A stretch of DNA of 10,198 bases from the IMG/VR virus record IMGVR_UViG_2531839473_000010, positions 1-10,198 of that record, one strand, 5' to 3'. The notes under the pieces are model-generated. The model was not told the DNA's origin. It did no database searches and saw nothing but the letters and a program-made list of their open reading frames with translations. Shown here piece after piece: positions 3,038 to 10,198 of this stretch (positions within the stretch are counted from its first letter, which is position 1; the number at the start of each line of letters is the position of its first letter). Both the position numbers and the translations under genes were made by a program. This DNA comes from a virus. Taxonomy: Duplodnaviria > Heunggongvirae > Uroviricota > Caudoviricetes.

Positions 3038-3334
3038 TCAGTCATTACTGATAGCGCCATAGCGTGAGCGGTAATTACGCAGGCGCGGGTCGATATATTC
3101 AGGGAAGTTGGTATATGTGGCTTTGCGGAATGGTCGGATTGATGTTTCGTTTATTCGGTCTTTTTCCTGTTTTTCTGCGAGTTGTATATCGCGTCGGTAC
3201 TTCCGTTCTGCTTTTGTTTCTGGTGGCAGAGCAAGAAACGCGTCGAGATTATTCTTGATATTTTCCAGCACCTCCGATACGGAATTGCCGGAACAGCGGC
3301 GCGGGTCATCCGCACCATACAAAGGCGCTGGCAT
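3038..3334 (-). CDS. Hypothetical protein (98 aa)
   Basis: ATG with GGAG at 7-nt spacing, starting 17 nt after the exonuclease stop. Basic and charged; no family recognised. Confidence 0.5.
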
Positions 3335-3350: not shown

Positions 3351-3899
3351 TTATTTAGCTAACTTTTTCCAGATCGCTGAAACGTATTTGGCTTGGTGGA
3401 TGGCATCATCAAGCGCGTTGTGGCGAGTTCCTTTGAATGGCATATCTCGCTTAGGGTCGAATCCTATTACCTTTCCAAGCTCGACGATTGTTCTTACGTC
3501 GCGGTCATTCCACCACTGCCACGGAACTGGCTGCCCTGTCAGCGAATAACTGTTTCGGAGAATAACGCAGTCAAATGATGCTCCATTCCCCCAAACCTGA
3601 ACGAATTTGTGGTTAGCGTTCTTTATGATGAATTCAGATAACCATGAAAGAGCCGTTGAAAGCTCCTGAGTGTTGCTGGTTAGCGATTTTCTGGCTTCTT
3701 CACTCTGTTCCATCCACCATAAAATCGTTGAAGCGTCAGGACGCGCTCGATATCGCATTGATGACTCAAGCGAGATATTTACCGAGAACTCTTCTCCTGT
3801 TTCTCCGGTATTCGGGTCAAAGAATACCGCCCCAATAGAAATAACTGGCGCGTATGGCTCGTTGACCATTGTTTCAAGGTCAACCATCAAGTGATTCAT
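3351..3899 (-). CDS. DEDDh-type 3'-5' exonuclease (182 aa)
   Basis: Motifs consistent with the DnaQ-like fold: VDLETM (motif I, D-x-E), WGNGASFD (motif II), HNALDDA (motif III, H and D). AAGGA ribosome-binding site. Part of the recombination gene cluster. Confidence 0.75.
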   Translation of the reverse strand: MNHLMVDLETMVNEPYAPVISIGAVFFDPNTGETGEEFSVNISLESSMRYRARPDASTILWWMEQSEEARKSLTSNTQELSTALSWLSEFIIKNANHKFVQVWGNGASFDCVILRNSYSLTGQPVPWQWWNDRDVRTIVELGKVIGFDPKRDMPFKGTRHNALDDAIHQAKYVSAIWKKLAK

Positions 3900-4396: not shown

Positions 4397-4870
4397 CTAG
4401 AACGGAATATCCGAATCGTCGAAGTTCATAGGTGGTTCGCTGTGATTTCCCTGCTGCAGAGGTTGCTGTCTTTGTTGCTGACCGTTATTTCGCTGAGGTG
4501 AAGACTGTTCATTGCCTCCTTGCTTGCCACCAAGCATTTGCATGGTTCCACCAACGCCTACGATAACTTCGGTAGTGAACCTATCCTGTCCGCTTTGATC
4601 CTGCCATTTTCTTGTCCGTAATTTGCCTTCAAGATAAACCTCTGAGCCTTTTCGCAGATATTCGCTGGCAATTTCTGCCAGTTTCCCGCTCATTACCACT
4701 CGGTGCCACTCCGTCTGCTCCTTTTGCTCTCCAGTTTGCTTATCACGCCATTGTTCTGACGTAGCAACTGTAAGGTTTGCAAATGCCGTTCCTGATGGTG
4801 AATATCTGATTTCTGGATCATGCCCAAGGCGACCAATAATGATCACCTTATTTACGCCTCTGCTTGCCAT
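4397..4870 (-). CDS. ssb: Single-stranded DNA-binding protein (157 aa)
   Basis: OB-fold N-terminal region ([43 protein letters not shown]...TEWHRVV), Gly/Gln-rich linker and the acidic C-terminal tip DDSDIPF characteristic of bacterial and phage SSB. Confidence 0.9.
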
Positions 4871-5578
4871 TTATGCCGCCTGTTTTAGTTCGTTAACTCT
4901 GATGTTCATTACCTGAACGCATTTAGCCTGCGCCTCCTCGTTGCCAGCCATTAATTGCCAGTCACGCTGATAACGCTCGATGAGTTTTTTCTTGTCAGTT
5001 TCTGTTGAAGCATAATCGCTGAAGTCTTTCAGGATTTGTTCGCAGTCAACCGATGGAGATTTCTGGTTGGTATTTTCTGGTGATGGTTTGTTATCTGATG
5101 CTGGGATTGCCCATCCCGGCAGCGATGGAGGGAGCCAGTAAAATCCTGTTCCATCCTTCAGTTTTGCCCTGTGCCACCCCTGCTTTTTATCGAGAGATGT
5201 TTGTGCGAAACCTTCCTCAAGGTTATACAGATACCGACCGATTCCCCACTGAACGGCAGCACGCTTCATTGCACCTGAACGACCACCTTTGACGGCTTCT
5301 ACCTGCGTGTTTTCAGCAGCATCCCATTTGGTTACCCATTCGGAATCAATCTTGATTGATATGCCGCATTCAACTCCGCCGTTGTTGGGAATATCGCGGT
5401 ATTCATTGCGCCATCCTGCTTTGCCGCAAACATCGTCCAGGCGTTTCATGATTGCCCGGTTCGTGACATAAGCCAGCACCATAGCCCACACCTTGCCATC
5501 GCGTGTTTTACCGCTTTGCTGTATTCGCCATTCGATATCTTCAGGGCTGAATGGCTCATCGAATTTATTCAAATCCAT
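4871..5578 (-). CDS. Single-strand annealing protein, Rad52/Sak-like family (235 aa)
   Basis: Lies immediately upstream of ssb, with its stop abutting the ssb ATG (TAAATG). The N-terminal region (GKVWAMVLAYVTNRAIMKRLDDVCGKAGW) resembles Rad52/Rad22-type phage recombinases as recalled; it is not lambda Bet or RecT-like to my eye. Confidence 0.6.
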   Translation of the reverse strand: MDLNKFDEPFSPEDIEWRIQQSGKTRDGKVWAMVLAYVTNRAIMKRLDDVCGKAGWRNEYRDIPNNGGVECGISIKIDSEWVTKWDAAENTQVEAVKGGRSGAMKRAAVQWGIGRYLYNLEEGFAQTSLDKKQGWHRAKLKDGTGFYWLPPSLPGWAIPASDNKPSPENTNQKSPSVDCEQILKDFSDYASTETDKKKLIERYQRDWQLMAGNEEAQAKCVQVMNIRVNELKQAA

Positions 5579-5586
5579 AATTCACC

Positions 5587-5757
5587 TCAGAATGGACATG
5601 GCCCAAGGAAATAACGCTGATTTAATACTTCGACTCGGGACAAATTAAGGCATACCCGCATTCCTTCGCGGTCACCATTATGGCGATACCAGAGAGCTTT
5701 CTGCGTGTACATGCGTCTCTGTAACTTGCTCTCCTTCACTGTGGTTGCAAGTGACAT
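5587..5757 (-). CDS. Hypothetical small protein (56 aa), MSLATTVKESKLQRRMYTQKALWYRHNGDREGMRVCLNLSRVEVLNQRYFLGPCPF
   Basis: Below the ORF-track length cutoff; read manually. ATG at 5755-5757 with GAAGGAG about 7 nt upstream. Its stop lies inside the ribosome-binding site of the downstream annealing-protein gene. Confidence 0.4.
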   Translation of the reverse strand: MSLATTVKESKLQRRMYTQKALWYRHNGDREGMRVCLNLSRVEVLNQRYFLGPCPF

Positions 5758-5836
5758 GAATATCTCCTTCGTTACCGATTAAATCTTTCATCTGACGAAT
5801 GAATTCTTCGTCTGACCAGTTATCTGTAAAACTCAT
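5678..5836 (-). CDS. Hypothetical small protein (52 aa), MSFTDNWSDEEFIRQMKDLIGNEGDIHVTC..., overlapping the previous ORF by 80 nt in another frame
   Basis: ATG at 5834-5836 overlaps the kil-like stop as ATGA. Either a genuine overlapping gene pair or one gene split by a frameshift. Confidence 0.3.
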   Translation of the reverse strand: MSFTDNWSDEEFIRQMKDLIGNEGDIHVTCNHSEGEQVTETHVHAESSLVSP

Positions 5837-5985
5837 TTCCTGCGATACCACGGAAGGTTGATAGCTGATTTCATCGCTTTATTTGCTTCAAGCCACATTT
5901 TTGAATCACCAATAAATCGGGCTATTACTGCTTTGTTCTGTGCAGCACGAAGCATCTGGTGATTGATGGCTATTTCATTGCGCAT
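5833..5985 (-). CDS. kil: Kil-like small protein (50 aa), candidate FtsZ/cell-division inhibitor
   Basis: MRNEIAINHQMLRAAQNKAVIARFIGDSKMWLEANKAMK... resembles recalled lambda Kil (motif IATFIGDEKMF). GGAGG ribosome-binding site at 4-5 nt spacing. Overlaps the 3' end of the cIII-like ORF as kil and cIII do in lambda. Confidence 0.5.
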   Translation of the reverse strand: MRNEIAINHQMLRAAQNKAVIARFIGDSKMWLEANKAMKSAINLPWYRRK

Positions 5986-6104
5986 AACGCCTCCAGTTGT
6001 TTCTTTGCTGCTCTGATTAATTGTTTTACTCGGCGTGATAATTCAGATTCGTGCGGGTAGAAAGCGGACATGACGCCGCTACCCGCGAGCTGAAAGTGCA
6101 TCAT
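5970..6104 (-). CDS. cIII: cIII-like small protein (44 aa), candidate FtsH inhibitor
   Basis: MMHFQLAGSGVMSAFYPHESELSRRVKQLIRAAKKQLEAL aligns by eye with recalled lambda cIII (MQYAIAGWPVAGCPSESLLERITRKLRDGWKRLIDIL). AAGGAG ribosome-binding site at 7-nt spacing. Synteny cIII then kil then recombination genes matches lambda. Confidence 0.5.
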   Translation of the reverse strand: MMHFQLAGSGVMSAFYPHESELSRRVKQLIRAAKKQLEALCAMK

Positions 6105-6179
6105 GGGTAACTCCTTATATTTGATTGCATAACGAAAACGCCTCGAGTGAAGCGTTATTGGTATGCGGTAAAGCCGCGC

Positions 6180-6491
6180 TTAGGCGGCTGATGTTTCTTC
6201 TTTCAGGCTTTCGAGATATTTACGTGGGTCGTCGTAACATTGGCATTCGCTGTACCAATCCACCCAGCGATCAGTAAGCCCCATCTCTGATAAATCTTCA
6301 TCGGTAAGGCTCTCATCCCACATCTCAAGGCCGTTAGCATTGCAGTAATCAGGCTTGATGTTGTTGTCATACTGAAAGGCATCATAATCAGCCAGTGCAT
6401 CCATCAGGCGAACACCCTCTTCAACACTTGCCACTTCTACAATGAACGGCTTCATAGGTACTTGCGGGATATGCCAGACACGTAATTTCAT
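6180..6491 (-). CDS. Hypothetical strongly acidic protein (103 aa from the ATG at 6491; the tool ORF is 121 aa)
   Basis: The internal ATG at 6489-6491 has GGAGG at 6-nt spacing immediately after a terminator-like hairpin. Protein MKLRVWHIPQVPMKPFIVEVASVEEG...DESLTDEDLSEMGLTDRWVDWYSECQCYDDPRKYLESLKEETSAA is rich in Asp/Glu. No family recognised. Confidence 0.55.
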   Translation of the reverse strand: MKLRVWHIPQVPMKPFIVEVASVEEGVRLMDALADYDAFQYDNNIKPDYCNANGLEMWDESLTDEDLSEMGLTDRWVDWYSECQCYDDPRKYLESLKEETSAA

Positions 6492-6503
6492 ATATCCTCC
6501 GTC

Positions 6504-6530
6504 AAAAAAATCGCCCTCACATTGGAGGGC
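6504..6530 (-). terminator. Candidate intrinsic terminator (tL-like) between the 207-aa ORF and the acidic ORF
   Basis: Minus strand reads GCCCTC-CAATGT-GAGGGC followed by GATTTTTTTGA. Perfect 6-bp GC-rich stem and a 7-T run. Confidence 0.5.
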
Positions 6531-6592
6531 AAAGAAGATTTCCAATAATCAGAACAAGTCGGCTCCTGTTTAGTTACGAGCGACATTGCTCC

Positions 6593-6620
6593 GTGTATTC
6601 ACTCGTTGGAATGAATACAC
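6593..6620. repeat. Perfect 9-bp inverted repeat GTGTATTCA-N10-TGAATACAC in the intergenic region downstream of the 207-aa ORF
   Basis: Seen directly in the sequence. No adjacent T-run on the minus strand, so it is not a canonical terminator for the operon; possible protein-binding site or RNA processing hairpin. Confidence 0.5.
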
Positions 6621-6664
6621 AGTGCAGTGTTTATTCTGTTGTTTATGTCAAAAATAAAGGCCGA

Positions 6665-7288
6665 CTATGCGGCCTCGGAAGGAAGTCCAATCATCTTATT
6701 CAAATCTTCTACCCGTAAAGCAGGAAGTGCTGTACTTGCTTTATCTGCTTCTTTTGGTAGCAATTCTTTGCTTTCAGGCCAAACCTCAATAAGTCGCTTA
6801 ACTGTTGTGACTGAGTTCAAAGCAGCCCATACATTTGATTCGATATCATTTTTCTTGGCTTCAAGTTTTTGTTGCAATGCGCAGATTTCATCAAACCTTT
6901 TTGTTATTTCGTGTTCTGCGCTAAACATGCATTTATCTTTTTTCGGAGTAGGGAGCAATATATCTTCGCCGTTGCCGTCTTTCCCATATGAATGCCATCC
7001 AACCCTTCTGCCAGATACAGTCAGATAAATTGAAGTAGAACGAACATCGTATGAGTAAAATGAACATCCCAGTTTTTCAAGTTCTTCACTTATAGCTACT
7101 AACTTGGAATATAAATGATCCACTTCCTCAGTTTTCTTTTTACCGCCAAACGCAATAACTCTGGCGTCAAGTGCAAGCTGGTTCTTTAACTTTGTTACTT
7201 CTTCAAGTTCAGTGAAAACCCCAGACTTAATTAAATCGTTACGAGCGATTTCCTCTTTCATTCTCGTAGTTAAGCGGATTGATGACAT
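6665..7288 (-). CDS. Hypothetical protein (207 aa from the ATG at 7288; the tool ORF is 227 aa), uncharacterised accessory gene
   Basis: The ATG at 7286-7288 has GAGG about 8 nt upstream. Lys/Glu-rich with predicted helical segments; no catalytic motif recognised. Occupies the ral/ea10 position of lambda, divergent from the sieB-like gene. Confidence 0.6.
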   Translation of the reverse strand: MSSIRLTTRMKEEIARNDLIKSGVFTELEEVTKLKNQLALDARVIAFGGKKKTEEVDHLYSKLVAISEELEKLGCSFYSYDVRSTSIYLTVSGRRVGWHSYGKDGNGEDILLPTPKKDKCMFSAEHEITKRFDEICALQQKLEAKKNDIESNVWAALNSVTTVKRLIEVWPESKELLPKEADKASTALPALRVEDLNKMIGLPSEAA

Positions 7289-7432
7289 ATTAATTCCTCT
7301 CAAATAAGTGGTTTGCTGCCTAATTTCATTTTCTGGCGACCAACACAAGTCACACCCATTTCACTGCGTGGCTTGCGGTAGTAAAGATTGTGCCTGTCTT
7401 TTAACCACATCAGGCTCGGTGGTTCTCGTGTA

Positions 7433-7483
7433 CCCCTACAGCGAGAAATCGGATAAACTCTATTCACCCCCTACAGAGAGAAT
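7433..7483. repeat. Two direct repeats CCCCTACAG(C/A)GAGAA(A/T) spaced 35 bp, just upstream of the sieB-like start
   Basis: Copies at 7433-7448 and 7468-7483 are 14/16 identical. They lie in the 210-bp divergent region between the 207-aa ORF and the sieB-like gene; candidate regulator binding sites or promoter element. Confidence 0.45.
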
Positions 7484-7498
7484 GATGGAGATTCACCG

Positions 7499-8038
7499 AT
7501 GAGTAACTGGTGGCAGGAACTATTACGTTTCTTCCTGCGTGGTCTTACGCTACAACAGTTAATTCATATGCTTATTATTTTAATTGCCTTGATAATAATC
7601 ACCCCTGCATCAATTAAAGAGTGGGTAGATATAAGGAACCCAGAAATACTTCCAGATCACTGGATGTATTACGCAATGCTTTTGTGTATCAGTTATGTTC
7701 TGAACAGGGTGATGGAGTTTATATTTCTGGCATCTTCAGACAGATATAAAAAATATCTCAGTAAGAGAGATGAGGCTAAAGTAATTGTGGAGACTGAGCG
7801 CCTGTTCAATTCTCTGAGTATTCAGGAAAAAGAGGTTTTAGCATTTGCTGTTATGGCAAATAACAAAATCGTACTTAAGCACGGCGATCCGGTCGCTTTA
7901 TCTCTTATGAGAAAAGGCCTTCTCCATCGCTCAGGTGTGACTTACAGCGCGTCAGGTAAAGAGAAATTTGTTATACCTGACGTCTGGTTCCATGAGTGTT
8001 ATATGCGCTTTGCTGGTAAAGCTGATGAGCTAATTTAG
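7499..8038 (+). CDS. sieB: SieB-like superinfection-exclusion membrane protein (179 aa)
   Basis: The only plus-strand gene inside the leftward operon, convergent with and immediately adjacent to the N-like gene, as I recall for lambda sieB. Two hydrophobic helices (LIHMLIILIALIIITPASI and YYAMLLCISYVLNRVMEFIFLA). Assignment rests on synteny and topology, not on recognised sequence identity. Confidence 0.5.
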   Translation: MSNWWQELLRFFLRGLTLQQLIHMLIILIALIIITPASIKEWVDIRNPEILPDHWMYYAMLLCISYVLNRVMEFIFLASSDRYKKYLSKRDEAKVIVETERLFNSLSIQEKEVLAFAVMANNKIVLKHGDPVALSLMRKGLLHRSGVTYSASGKEKFVIPDVWFHECYMRFAGKADELI

Positions 8039-8059
8039 TTCCTCGACGGCGGGGGATCG

Positions 8060-8332
8060 TCACCTCGCTGTCAGTTGTTTTGATTTCCGGTAGCCTGCCG
8101 CGTAAAGAGCTACGTTCGGAAGACAAGTTGAGCCTTCATATTTTCTGGTCAACGTTGTCAGTGTTATTACTTCTGCTCTCATTGCTGGTTTGCGCTTGCA
8201 TTGCAAGACCACTCGTGAAGGGGTTGGCCTGTGTAGCTTGTCGGAGCTGATCGCCTCCTGACTTTGCAGATTTGCACGACGAGCTCTACGGCGAGAAGCT
8301 GCGGTGCCTTTAAATTCTGTTTTTCTGGACAT
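8060..8332 (-). CDS. N: N-like transcription antiterminator (90 aa from the ATG at 8332; the tool ORF is 114 aa)
   Basis: N-terminal arginine-rich motif GTAASRRRARRANLQ. C-terminus ...LPNVALYAAGYRKSKQLTAR resembles the P22/phi21-type N proteins as recalled. GGAGG ribosome-binding site at 5-nt spacing. First gene downstream of the predicted PL and nutL. Confidence 0.7.
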   Translation of the reverse strand: MSRKTEFKGTAASRRRARRANLQSQEAISSDKLHRPTPSRVVLQCKRKPAMRAEVITLTTLTRKYEGSTCLPNVALYAAGYRKSKQLTAR

Positions 8333-8430
8333 GGATTCCTCCCGAATAAACTTTGGCGATGCAATCTCGAAGCCCCTCCTGAGAGGGTTGCTTCGGCATT
8401 GCATCCCACAGCTTATGTGGTTGGGTGATC

Positions 8431-8478
8431 TGGCTTTTCAGCCACGTAGTCGAGTGTTCGACGTTGTTTAAAGAGCAT
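8431..8478 (-). promoter_or_regulatory. Candidate nutL site: boxA, spacer hairpin, boxB
   Basis: Minus strand reads TGCTCTTTAAACAAC (boxA-like; compare rrn boxA TGCTCTTTAACAA), then hairpin GTCGA-ACAC-TCGAC, TACG, then TGGCT-GAAA-AGCCA (boxB-like stem-loop with a GAAA loop). Same architecture as the candidate nutR. Confidence 0.6.
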
Positions 8479-8522
8479 GCCAGTCTGTTCCGTTTGGCTT
8501 CCAGCTTCCTGCTGATGGCTAA

Positions 8523-8598
8523 ATAGTACGATGTGTACTTTACTGAGTCAATACAAAATGTTCTAAATATGGTTTAGTTTTTTATAACGCTTTGTATT
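8523..8598 (-). promoter_or_regulatory. Candidate PL promoter with three OL operator sites
   Basis: Minus strand -35 TTGACT (plus 8546-8551), 17-bp spacer, -10 TACTAT (plus 8523-8528). Fifteen-bp sites on the plus strand: AGTACGATGTGTACT (8525-8539, perfect 5-N5-5 palindrome), AATACAAAATGTTCT (8550-8564) and ATAACGCTTTGTATT (8584-8598). All share AC-N5-GT spacing with the OR sites. Confidence 0.45.
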
Positions 8599-9763: not shown

Positions 9764-10198
9764 TGAACCGCCCCGGGTTTCCTGGAGAGTGTTTTATCTG
9801 TGAACTCAGGCTGCCAGATCATTGTTTCCGATGGAAGCATAATAAGCTTTTTCTGCTTCTGCCGGAGGAGTATGGCCCAGCCTTCCCAGCAATCGTCGAT
9901 TGTTATACCAGTCCACCCACGTGAGTGTGGCCAGTTCCACTTCTGCACGGTTTTTCCAGCTCTTACGGTGTATTACCTCCGCTTTGTAAAGACCATTGAT
10001 GCTCTCAGCCATCGCGTTGTCATACGAGTCGCCTGTACTCCCTGTTGATGCCAGCAGTTTTGCTTCTTTTAGTCGCTCCGTATAGGCCAGTGACACATAC
10101 TGAGAGCCTTTATCGCTGTGATGGATGGTGCCAGACGGACGACGGGCCCAGAACGCCTGCTCCAGCGCATCCAGCACGAATGTCGTTTCCATAGACGA
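9764..10198 (-). mobile_element. IS3-family insertion sequence, partial (one end only; continues past the window edge)
   Basis: Terminus TGAACCGCCCCGGGTTTCCTGGAGA starts at 9764 with the TG typical of IS3-family ends, and resembles the recalled IS629/IS3411-type inverted repeat. It contains the 3' part of a transposase gene on the minus strand. Confidence 0.75.
9806..10198 (-). CDS. IS3-family transposase OrfB (integrase-core/DDE domain), C-terminal part; 5' end lies outside the window
   Basis: IHHSDKGSQYVS..., DSYDNAMAESINGLYKAEVIH... and WVDWYNNRRLLGRLGHTPPAEAE are the hallmark of the IS3-family OrfB catalytic core C-terminus. The reading frame runs to the window edge. Confidence 0.85.
   Translation of the reverse strand, partial: SSMETTFVLDALEQAFWARRPSGTIHHSDKGSQYVSLAYTERLKEAKLLASTGSTGDSYDNAMAESINGLYKAEVIHRKSWKNRAEVELATLTWVDWYNNRRLLGRLGHTPPAEAEKAYYASIGNNDLAA

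Follow-up and report, generated by a model that had tools for sequence, protein, structure and literature searches.

The gene at positions 6180 to 6491 of the stretch of DNA analyzed here (10,198 nucleotides, hereafter the window) encodes a small protein that, judging from its sequence, is almost certainly the orthologue of gp17 of phage P22, carried by an Escherichia lambdoid prophage of which the window is the left arm. In P22, gene 17 counters the exclusion of the phage by the P2-like prophage Fels-2. Taken as a whole, the explanation that we favor, and consider probable, is that the window protein is a gp17 orthologue with a counter-exclusion role in the lytic phase, and that it acts as a putative binder of an abortive infection (Abi) protein. 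As a sequence feature, it is an ordinary, catalogued accessory gene of lambdoid phages, and it is already known, since the family is named and the identical sequence is present in public databases. What it represents is an old, genetically defined counter-defense function.

The open reading frame runs on the minus strand from an ATG at 6491 to a TAA at 6182-6180, and its 103-residue product (MKLRVWHIPQVPMKPFIVEVASVEEGVRLMDALADYDAFQYDNNIKPDYCNANGLEMWDESLTDEDLSEMGLTDRWVDWYSECQCYDDPRKYLESLKEETSAA) matches the Pfam family PF17420, with the full label "GP17, superinfection exclusion gene product 17," at an E value of 7.3e-56 and 186.8 bits. The match covers the family over its full length (residues 1-98 on profile positions 1-98 of 98) and lies far above the curated cut-off of 25 bits. 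PHROG 1510 was matched at an E value of 5.7e-58. An earlier note on this DNA had left the protein unrecognized, but the profile searches place it in these two named families. In tblastn comparisons, the product of P22 gene 17 is 88% identical to the window protein over all 103 residues, and a product of an Stx1a-converting phage is 100% identical; in phage H-19B, the same gene is annotated "17." Under the name "superinfection exclusion protein," the identical sequence is public on at least 1000 contigs, and the unchanged gene is present across many E. coli and Shigella genomes. The reality of the open reading frame as a gene is supported by the Pfam match (E 7e-56) together with 1183 clusters of relatives. 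A longer reading of 121 amino acids from a TTG at 6545 was rejected because it crosses the terminator ahead of the gene and because the homologues begin at MKLRVW.

The gene occupies the early-operon position known from P22, after N and before cIII and kil, with terminators on both sides (Table 1), and its placement just upstream of cIII-kil in the earlier note was confirmed by the Pfam assignments of both genes. P22 gene 17 is of the same length and, in the pL operon, likewise directly precedes c3/cIII and kil; it also has a terminator and GGAGGA upstream and a hairpin over its stop codon. When window positions 5501-8500 were compared with the P22 pL region by local blastn, the gene was found within a mosaic module shared by the two phages, and, apart from it, only sieB and a short stretch of N were shared. 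The cIII, kil, and Nmad5 DNA beside the module had no P22 counterpart in this comparison, so that the flanks are other mosaic pieces. The two phages differ in host (Escherichia or Shigella for the window phage, Salmonella for P22), in the upstream neighbors of the gene (an Nmad5 gene and sieB in the window, ral-orf78-orf87 in P22), and in the recombination module (Rad52-like protein and SSB in the window, erf-abc1 in P22).

Table 1. Features of the window, in minus-strand order, and the two accessory genes of Fels-2 (last two rows, coordinates of the Fels-2 record, L002)
Feature	Position	Strand	Basis or remark
IS3-like (IS1203 family) transposase gene	9806-10192	(-)	Directly after cro
LexA-type repressor gene			Before the pL-like promoter in minus-strand order
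pL-like promoter, TTGACT-17-TACTAT	8523-8551	(-)	Promoter scan; between repressor gene and N, as in P22
N antiterminator gene	8060-8404	(-)	Pfam N_peptide, E 2.5e-32
sieB	7499-8035	Opposite to pL operon	Pfam
Nmad5 gene	6668-7288	(-)	Pfam, E 2.5e-70, full-length; PHROG 1965, of unknown function
Second terminator-like hairpin, end of upstream Nmad5 gene	6657-6676	(-)	Terminator scan; fold
Mosaic module shared with P22, ~420 bp	6170-6591	(-)	82% DNA identity; leader, terminator, gene 17, stop-codon hairpin
Intrinsic-terminator-like hairpin directly upstream of gene 17	6503-6532	(-)	Terminator scan; leader fold
Shine-Dalgarno sequence GGAGGA	6495-6500	(-)	Read from sequence; 3 nt before ATG; GGAGGA at same position in P22
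Gene 17 homologue, CDS	6180-6491	(-)	103 aa and TAA stop; translation, Pfam, PHROG
GC-rich hairpin over gene 17 stop codon	6172-6189	(-)	Scan; fold; "terminator" position in P22
Terminator-like hairpin between gene 17 and cIII	6137-6156	(-)	Scan; fold of 6120-6200, z = -4.5
cIII	5970-6104	(-)	Pfam; just downstream of gene 17
kil	5833-5985	(-)	Pfam; downstream of gene 17
Two small PHROG families labelled "recombinase"			After kil in minus-strand order
Small acidic protein, 57 aa	5681-5851	(-)	PHROG 2123, labelled "recombinase"
Rad52-like annealing protein	4874-5578		
SSB	4400-4870		
Rv2179c-like 3'-5' exonuclease	3354-3899		
Abc2 anti-RecBCD homologue	3041-3334	(-)	PHROG 656, E 3e-49
Ead/Ea22-like gene			After Abc2 homologue in minus-strand order
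ORF at excisionase position and integrase-like ORF			End of minus-strand order; integrase-like ORF named from matching genome records
Fels-2 STM2723.1, 565 aa	22639-24336 (first listed of the pair)		AbiU/AIPR
Fels-2 STM2726, 243 aa	24604-25335 (second listed of the pair)		PHROG of unknown function

The signals around the gene suggest when it would be expressed. A terminator-like hairpin directly before the gene and a strong ribosome-binding site had both been read from the sequence in the earlier note, and both readings hold: the hairpin found by the terminator scan at 6511-6532 has the form GCCCTC-CAATGT-GAGGGC and is followed by a run of seven T, and GGAGGA stands 3 nt from the ATG. The gene 17 leader folds at z = -4.6 relative to shuffled sequences, and its terminator stem is apparently kept between the window and P22 despite base changes, in an alignment judged by eye. 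At the other end of the gene, the P22 record annotates a terminator (L001, 3304-3324) that overlaps the end of gene 17. Between positions 5800 and 8700 of the window, 11 terminator-like sites were counted, compared with 2.8 ± 1.5 in shuffles, and the promoter scan gave no promoter-like site from N to gene 17. Gene 17 would therefore be read as a member of the early-left (pL) operon, with at least two terminator-like hairpins in the roughly 2 kb that separate it from the promoter. Its transcription is presumably driven by the pL-like promoter, and the layout of the operon suggests that N is presumably needed to pass the terminators ahead of it. Because no promoter-like site lies between N and gene 17 and two terminators intervene (6657-6676 and 6511-6532), gp17 would be made only under active N antitermination, which would restrict it to lytic growth and rule out the repressed prophage as a source.

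Two minor observations concern RNA structure. A search of the whole window against Rfam gave no match to a structured RNA. In the predicted fold of the leader (6492-6560, minus strand), the ribosome-binding site GGAGGAU is paired with AUCUUCU, a sequence immediately 5' to the terminator hairpin; this pairing is treated as probably due to chance, since the P22 leader, aligned by eye, shows no obvious counterpart.

The function on record for P22 gene 17 is escape from exclusion. The note in the P22 RefSeq record reads "allows growth on phage Fels2 lysogen," and two papers that cite Semerjian et al. 1989 (PMC6486243, PMC9409062) state that gp17 is required to counteract the Fels-2 exclusion system. 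One paper (PMC4837284) names Fels-1, not Fels-2, as the excluding prophage. This functional evidence is second-hand and comes from P22 in Salmonella, not from this coliphage; by homology, an anti-exclusion role of the window protein in its own phage is probable. Since P22 gene 17 counters exclusion, the label "superinfection exclusion protein" has the direction backwards, and what is attached to this protein across public records is the opposite of its recorded function. The suggestion of the earlier note that the protein is an anti-defense factor gains support from homology in its generic form, because P22 gene 17 counters exclusion and does not cause it, but the more specific suggestion of a DNA-mimic anti-restriction factor does not (only the charge is in its favor). 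A phage function that cancels exclusion by a resident prophage follows the same logic as P22 Esc against SieB and T4 rII against lambda Rex (P22 annotation; PMC9409062). The Esc and rII proteins are themselves unrelated to gp17. Esc is made from within sieB itself, whereas T4 rIIA and rIIB are large proteins associated with the membrane. A literature search linking gene 17 or gp17 to Fels-1, Fels-2, AbiU, or modern anti-defense work returned only genome announcements, and no paper giving its target or mode of action was found in that search.

The AlphaFold2 model of the window protein (pLDDT 92.5, pTM 0.81) is a compact alpha/beta domain with predicted strands at residues 3-8, 16-20, 52-58, and 76-78 and predicted helices at 23-42, 64-70, and 89-102. 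No hydrophobic segment is present (maximum Kyte-Doolittle value over 19 residues, 1.02; GRAVY, -0.59). A search of the model among viral models matched family members only, a fold search of solved structures found no similarity, and neither the single sequence nor the family profile gave a PDB sequence match beyond noise at E values up to 10; the ERH (enhancer of rudimentary homologue) fold is named among the comparison systems for gp17. The structure prediction proposed in the earlier note thus yielded a confident alpha/beta model and, among its matches, no fold resembling that of a mimic. The least variable residues of gp17 (P9, Q10, F16, L33, Y36, D37, F39, Q40, K46, P47, D48, Y49, N51, W76, and W79) are mostly aromatic or polar and map to the end of helix 1, to the loop behind it, and to strand 4. 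The window protein keeps P9, Q10, F16, L33, Y36, D37, F39, Q40, K46, D48, Y49, N51, W76, and W79, and each of these 14 core residues is kept in 89-100% of 100 divergent GP17 representatives.

The profile search of the GP17 family returned 1183 clusters at 50% identity, 770 of them at an E value of 1e-10 or better. One relative is gp18 of phage N4, annotated "similar to P22 gp17" and located beside the RNA polymerase II genes; others occur in Kuttervirus myophages, in Bacillus phage SBSphiC, and in prophage-like early regions of Firmicutes, Actinobacteria, several classes of Proteobacteria, Planctomycetes, and candidate-phyla bacteria. Relatives from outside the enterobacteria are 43-56% identical to the window protein. 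A scan of 147 open reading frames around 30 GP17 loci across phyla found no constant partner gene, and the neighbors were generic phage early, replication, and recombination genes. Gene 17 is a stand-alone accessory gene, present in the early regions of many unrelated phages without a constant neighbor.

How gp17 would counter exclusion can be sketched from these properties. It would be a small, soluble, compact alpha/beta protein, made early, that binds and neutralizes a prophage abortive infection protein or, alternatively, masks whatever triggers that protein. The confident model, the lack of a hydrophobic segment, and the conserved aromatic and polar residues are points for a soluble, folded binder, and the candidate contacts, as placed on the predicted model, are P9-Q10, Y36-D37-x-F39-Q40, K46-P47-D48-Y49-x-N51, W76, and W79. 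That gp17 is a direct protein inhibitor is possible, with a likelihood that we put somewhat short of even. As for the inhibited protein, Fels-2 (NC_010463) carries two accessory genes flanked by portal gene Q and replication gene A, at the position of the old/tin hotspot of P2. The product of STM2723.1 matches AbiU in PADLOC (2.7e-112), AIPR in Pfam (8.8e-43), and PHROG 1841, "Abi alpha-like abortive infection mechanism." Because Fels-2 has an AbiU/AIPR gene in this accessory hotspot beside the portal gene, STM2723.1 is the best candidate for the excluder that gp17 counters, and the identity of the excluder of P22 gene 17 mutants is therefore directly testable. As the actual target of gp17, AbiU is a tentative and rather doubtful candidate; STM2726 is a further candidate for the Fels-2 system that excludes P22 gene 17 mutants.

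Extended to the whole family, this proposal would make GP17 a cross-phylum inhibitor of AbiU/AIPR-type Abi proteins that acts through YD-x-FQ, KPDY-x-N, W76, and W79. We know of no earlier description of such a role, and we regard it as a speculative reading with a low chance of being right. If true, it would explain the Fels-2 exclusion of P22 gene 17 mutants as well as how the gene came to spread among N4-like, Kuttervirus, and Gram-positive phages. In a variant of the proposal, the family would bind a universal ligand or host factor on which several defense systems depend.

Other readings of the protein have to be weighed against an Abi-protein binder. The strong negative charge had led the earlier note to propose a DNA mimic of the Ocr, ArdA, and Gam form. 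On such a reading, the acidic surface would imitate DNA and titrate a DNA-binding defense enzyme (type I restriction, RecBCD, or a nuclease-type Abi). The acidity itself was borne out by computation, with a pI of 4.14, 23 Asp and Glu against 9 Lys and Arg, a net charge of about -14, and an Asp/Glu-rich stretch, DESLTDEDLSEMGLTD, at residues 59-74, and the protein is among the three most acidic encoded in the window. The acidity is shared across the family: the 63 close homologues all have a pI of 4.05-4.40 and a net charge of -8 to -18, 95 of the 100 divergent representatives have a pI below 5, and the variable loop is acidic even when shortened from 18 to 5 residues. With T7 Ocr, ArdA, and lambda Gam, gp17 shares small size, strong acidity, early expression, and action against host or prophage defenses. 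However, it has no sequence or structural relationship to them: Pfam gave no Ocr, ArdA, or Gam match at E values up to 1, GP17 being the sole match, and neither the PDB sequence searches nor the fold comparison linked it to a solved mimic. Unlike those proteins, gp17 has a mixed alpha/beta fold and a conserved aromatic/polar motif, and most of the family does without its acidic insert (residues 63-73 of the acidic stretch, which more than half of the divergent members lack). In a few members the protein is neutral, with a pI of up to 7.5, and among the most conserved residues only D37 and D48 are acidic, which leaves no carboxylate array. In P22, moreover, restriction alleviation belongs to ral and anti-RecBCD activity to abc1 and abc2, and the window has its own Abc2 homologue. 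Charge is the only point that favors DNA mimicry by gp17, and we consider this mechanism quite unlikely.

The breadth of the family bears on a different possibility, namely that gp17 binds a universal small molecule or a conserved host component, as a signaling-nucleotide sponge or a host-takeover factor would, and that relief from Fels-2 is one consequence among several. With 1183 clusters and 43-56% identity across phyla, the family is unusually conserved for the inhibitor of a single, fast-evolving defense protein, and its target or ligand may be a more universal one. Y36 and D37 are invariant, F16, D48, L33, Q40, and W76 are each retained by at least 97% of the 100 divergent representatives, the gene has no conserved partner, and the loop and helix-end residues, rich in Tyr, Trp, Asp, Asn, and Gln, may resemble a ligand pocket. 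Nevertheless, neither fold nor sequence resembles a solved structure, known sponges included if deposited, none of the analyses run suggested a ligand or host target, and small-molecule signaling is, to our knowledge, not known for AbiU-type systems, so that we judge this reading unlikely. The family name would imply yet another function, that of a genuine superinfection exclusion protein with which the prophage would block incoming phages, and the name in the Pfam, PHROG, and NCBI records is all that speaks for it. What the sources of that name report is escape from exclusion. The gene has no promoter of its own and, as part of the repressed pL operon, is preceded by two terminators; its product, unlike SieB, is an acidic soluble protein lacking a membrane segment, and Pfam gives no SieB match for it. 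The gene is also common in the strictly virulent N4 and Kuttervirus phages, which form no prophage. This last reading is largely refuted and, in our estimate, very improbable.

Some observations on distant relatives and on the neighborhood of the gene remain. A few distant GP17 proteins are fused to Phage_gp49_66, to DUF6166, or to an RNA polymerase alpha C-terminal-like or HAD-like piece, and others have long extensions that lack annotation (together, proteins P0154, P0173, P0144, and P0209 and loci L029 and L032). As a clue to function these fusions are uninformative, because no partner recurs. GP17 matches were also found in bins labelled archaeal (L008, L028, and L032; for example, Methanothrix). 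These loci are probably wrongly binned phage contigs, since the protein of L008 is 65% identical to the window protein and the locus has large upstream open reading frames in an arrangement that recalls phage N4.

Within the window, the gene directly upstream of gene 17 encodes an Nmad5 ("nucleotide modification associated domain 5") protein, ends in its own terminator-like hairpin, and sits in the slot that ral-orf78-orf87 occupies in P22. The recombination module (Rad52-like protein, SSB, Rv2179c-like exonuclease, and Abc2) differs from erf-abc1-abc2 of P22. The 57-residue protein encoded at 5681-5851 is also very acidic (pI 4.3, net charge -10); its gene overlaps the start of kil and has the position of P22 arf. 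At the other end of the window, the IS3-like transposase gene lies near the cII position in the annotation of other genomes; with its right arm interrupted in this way, the prophage may be defective.
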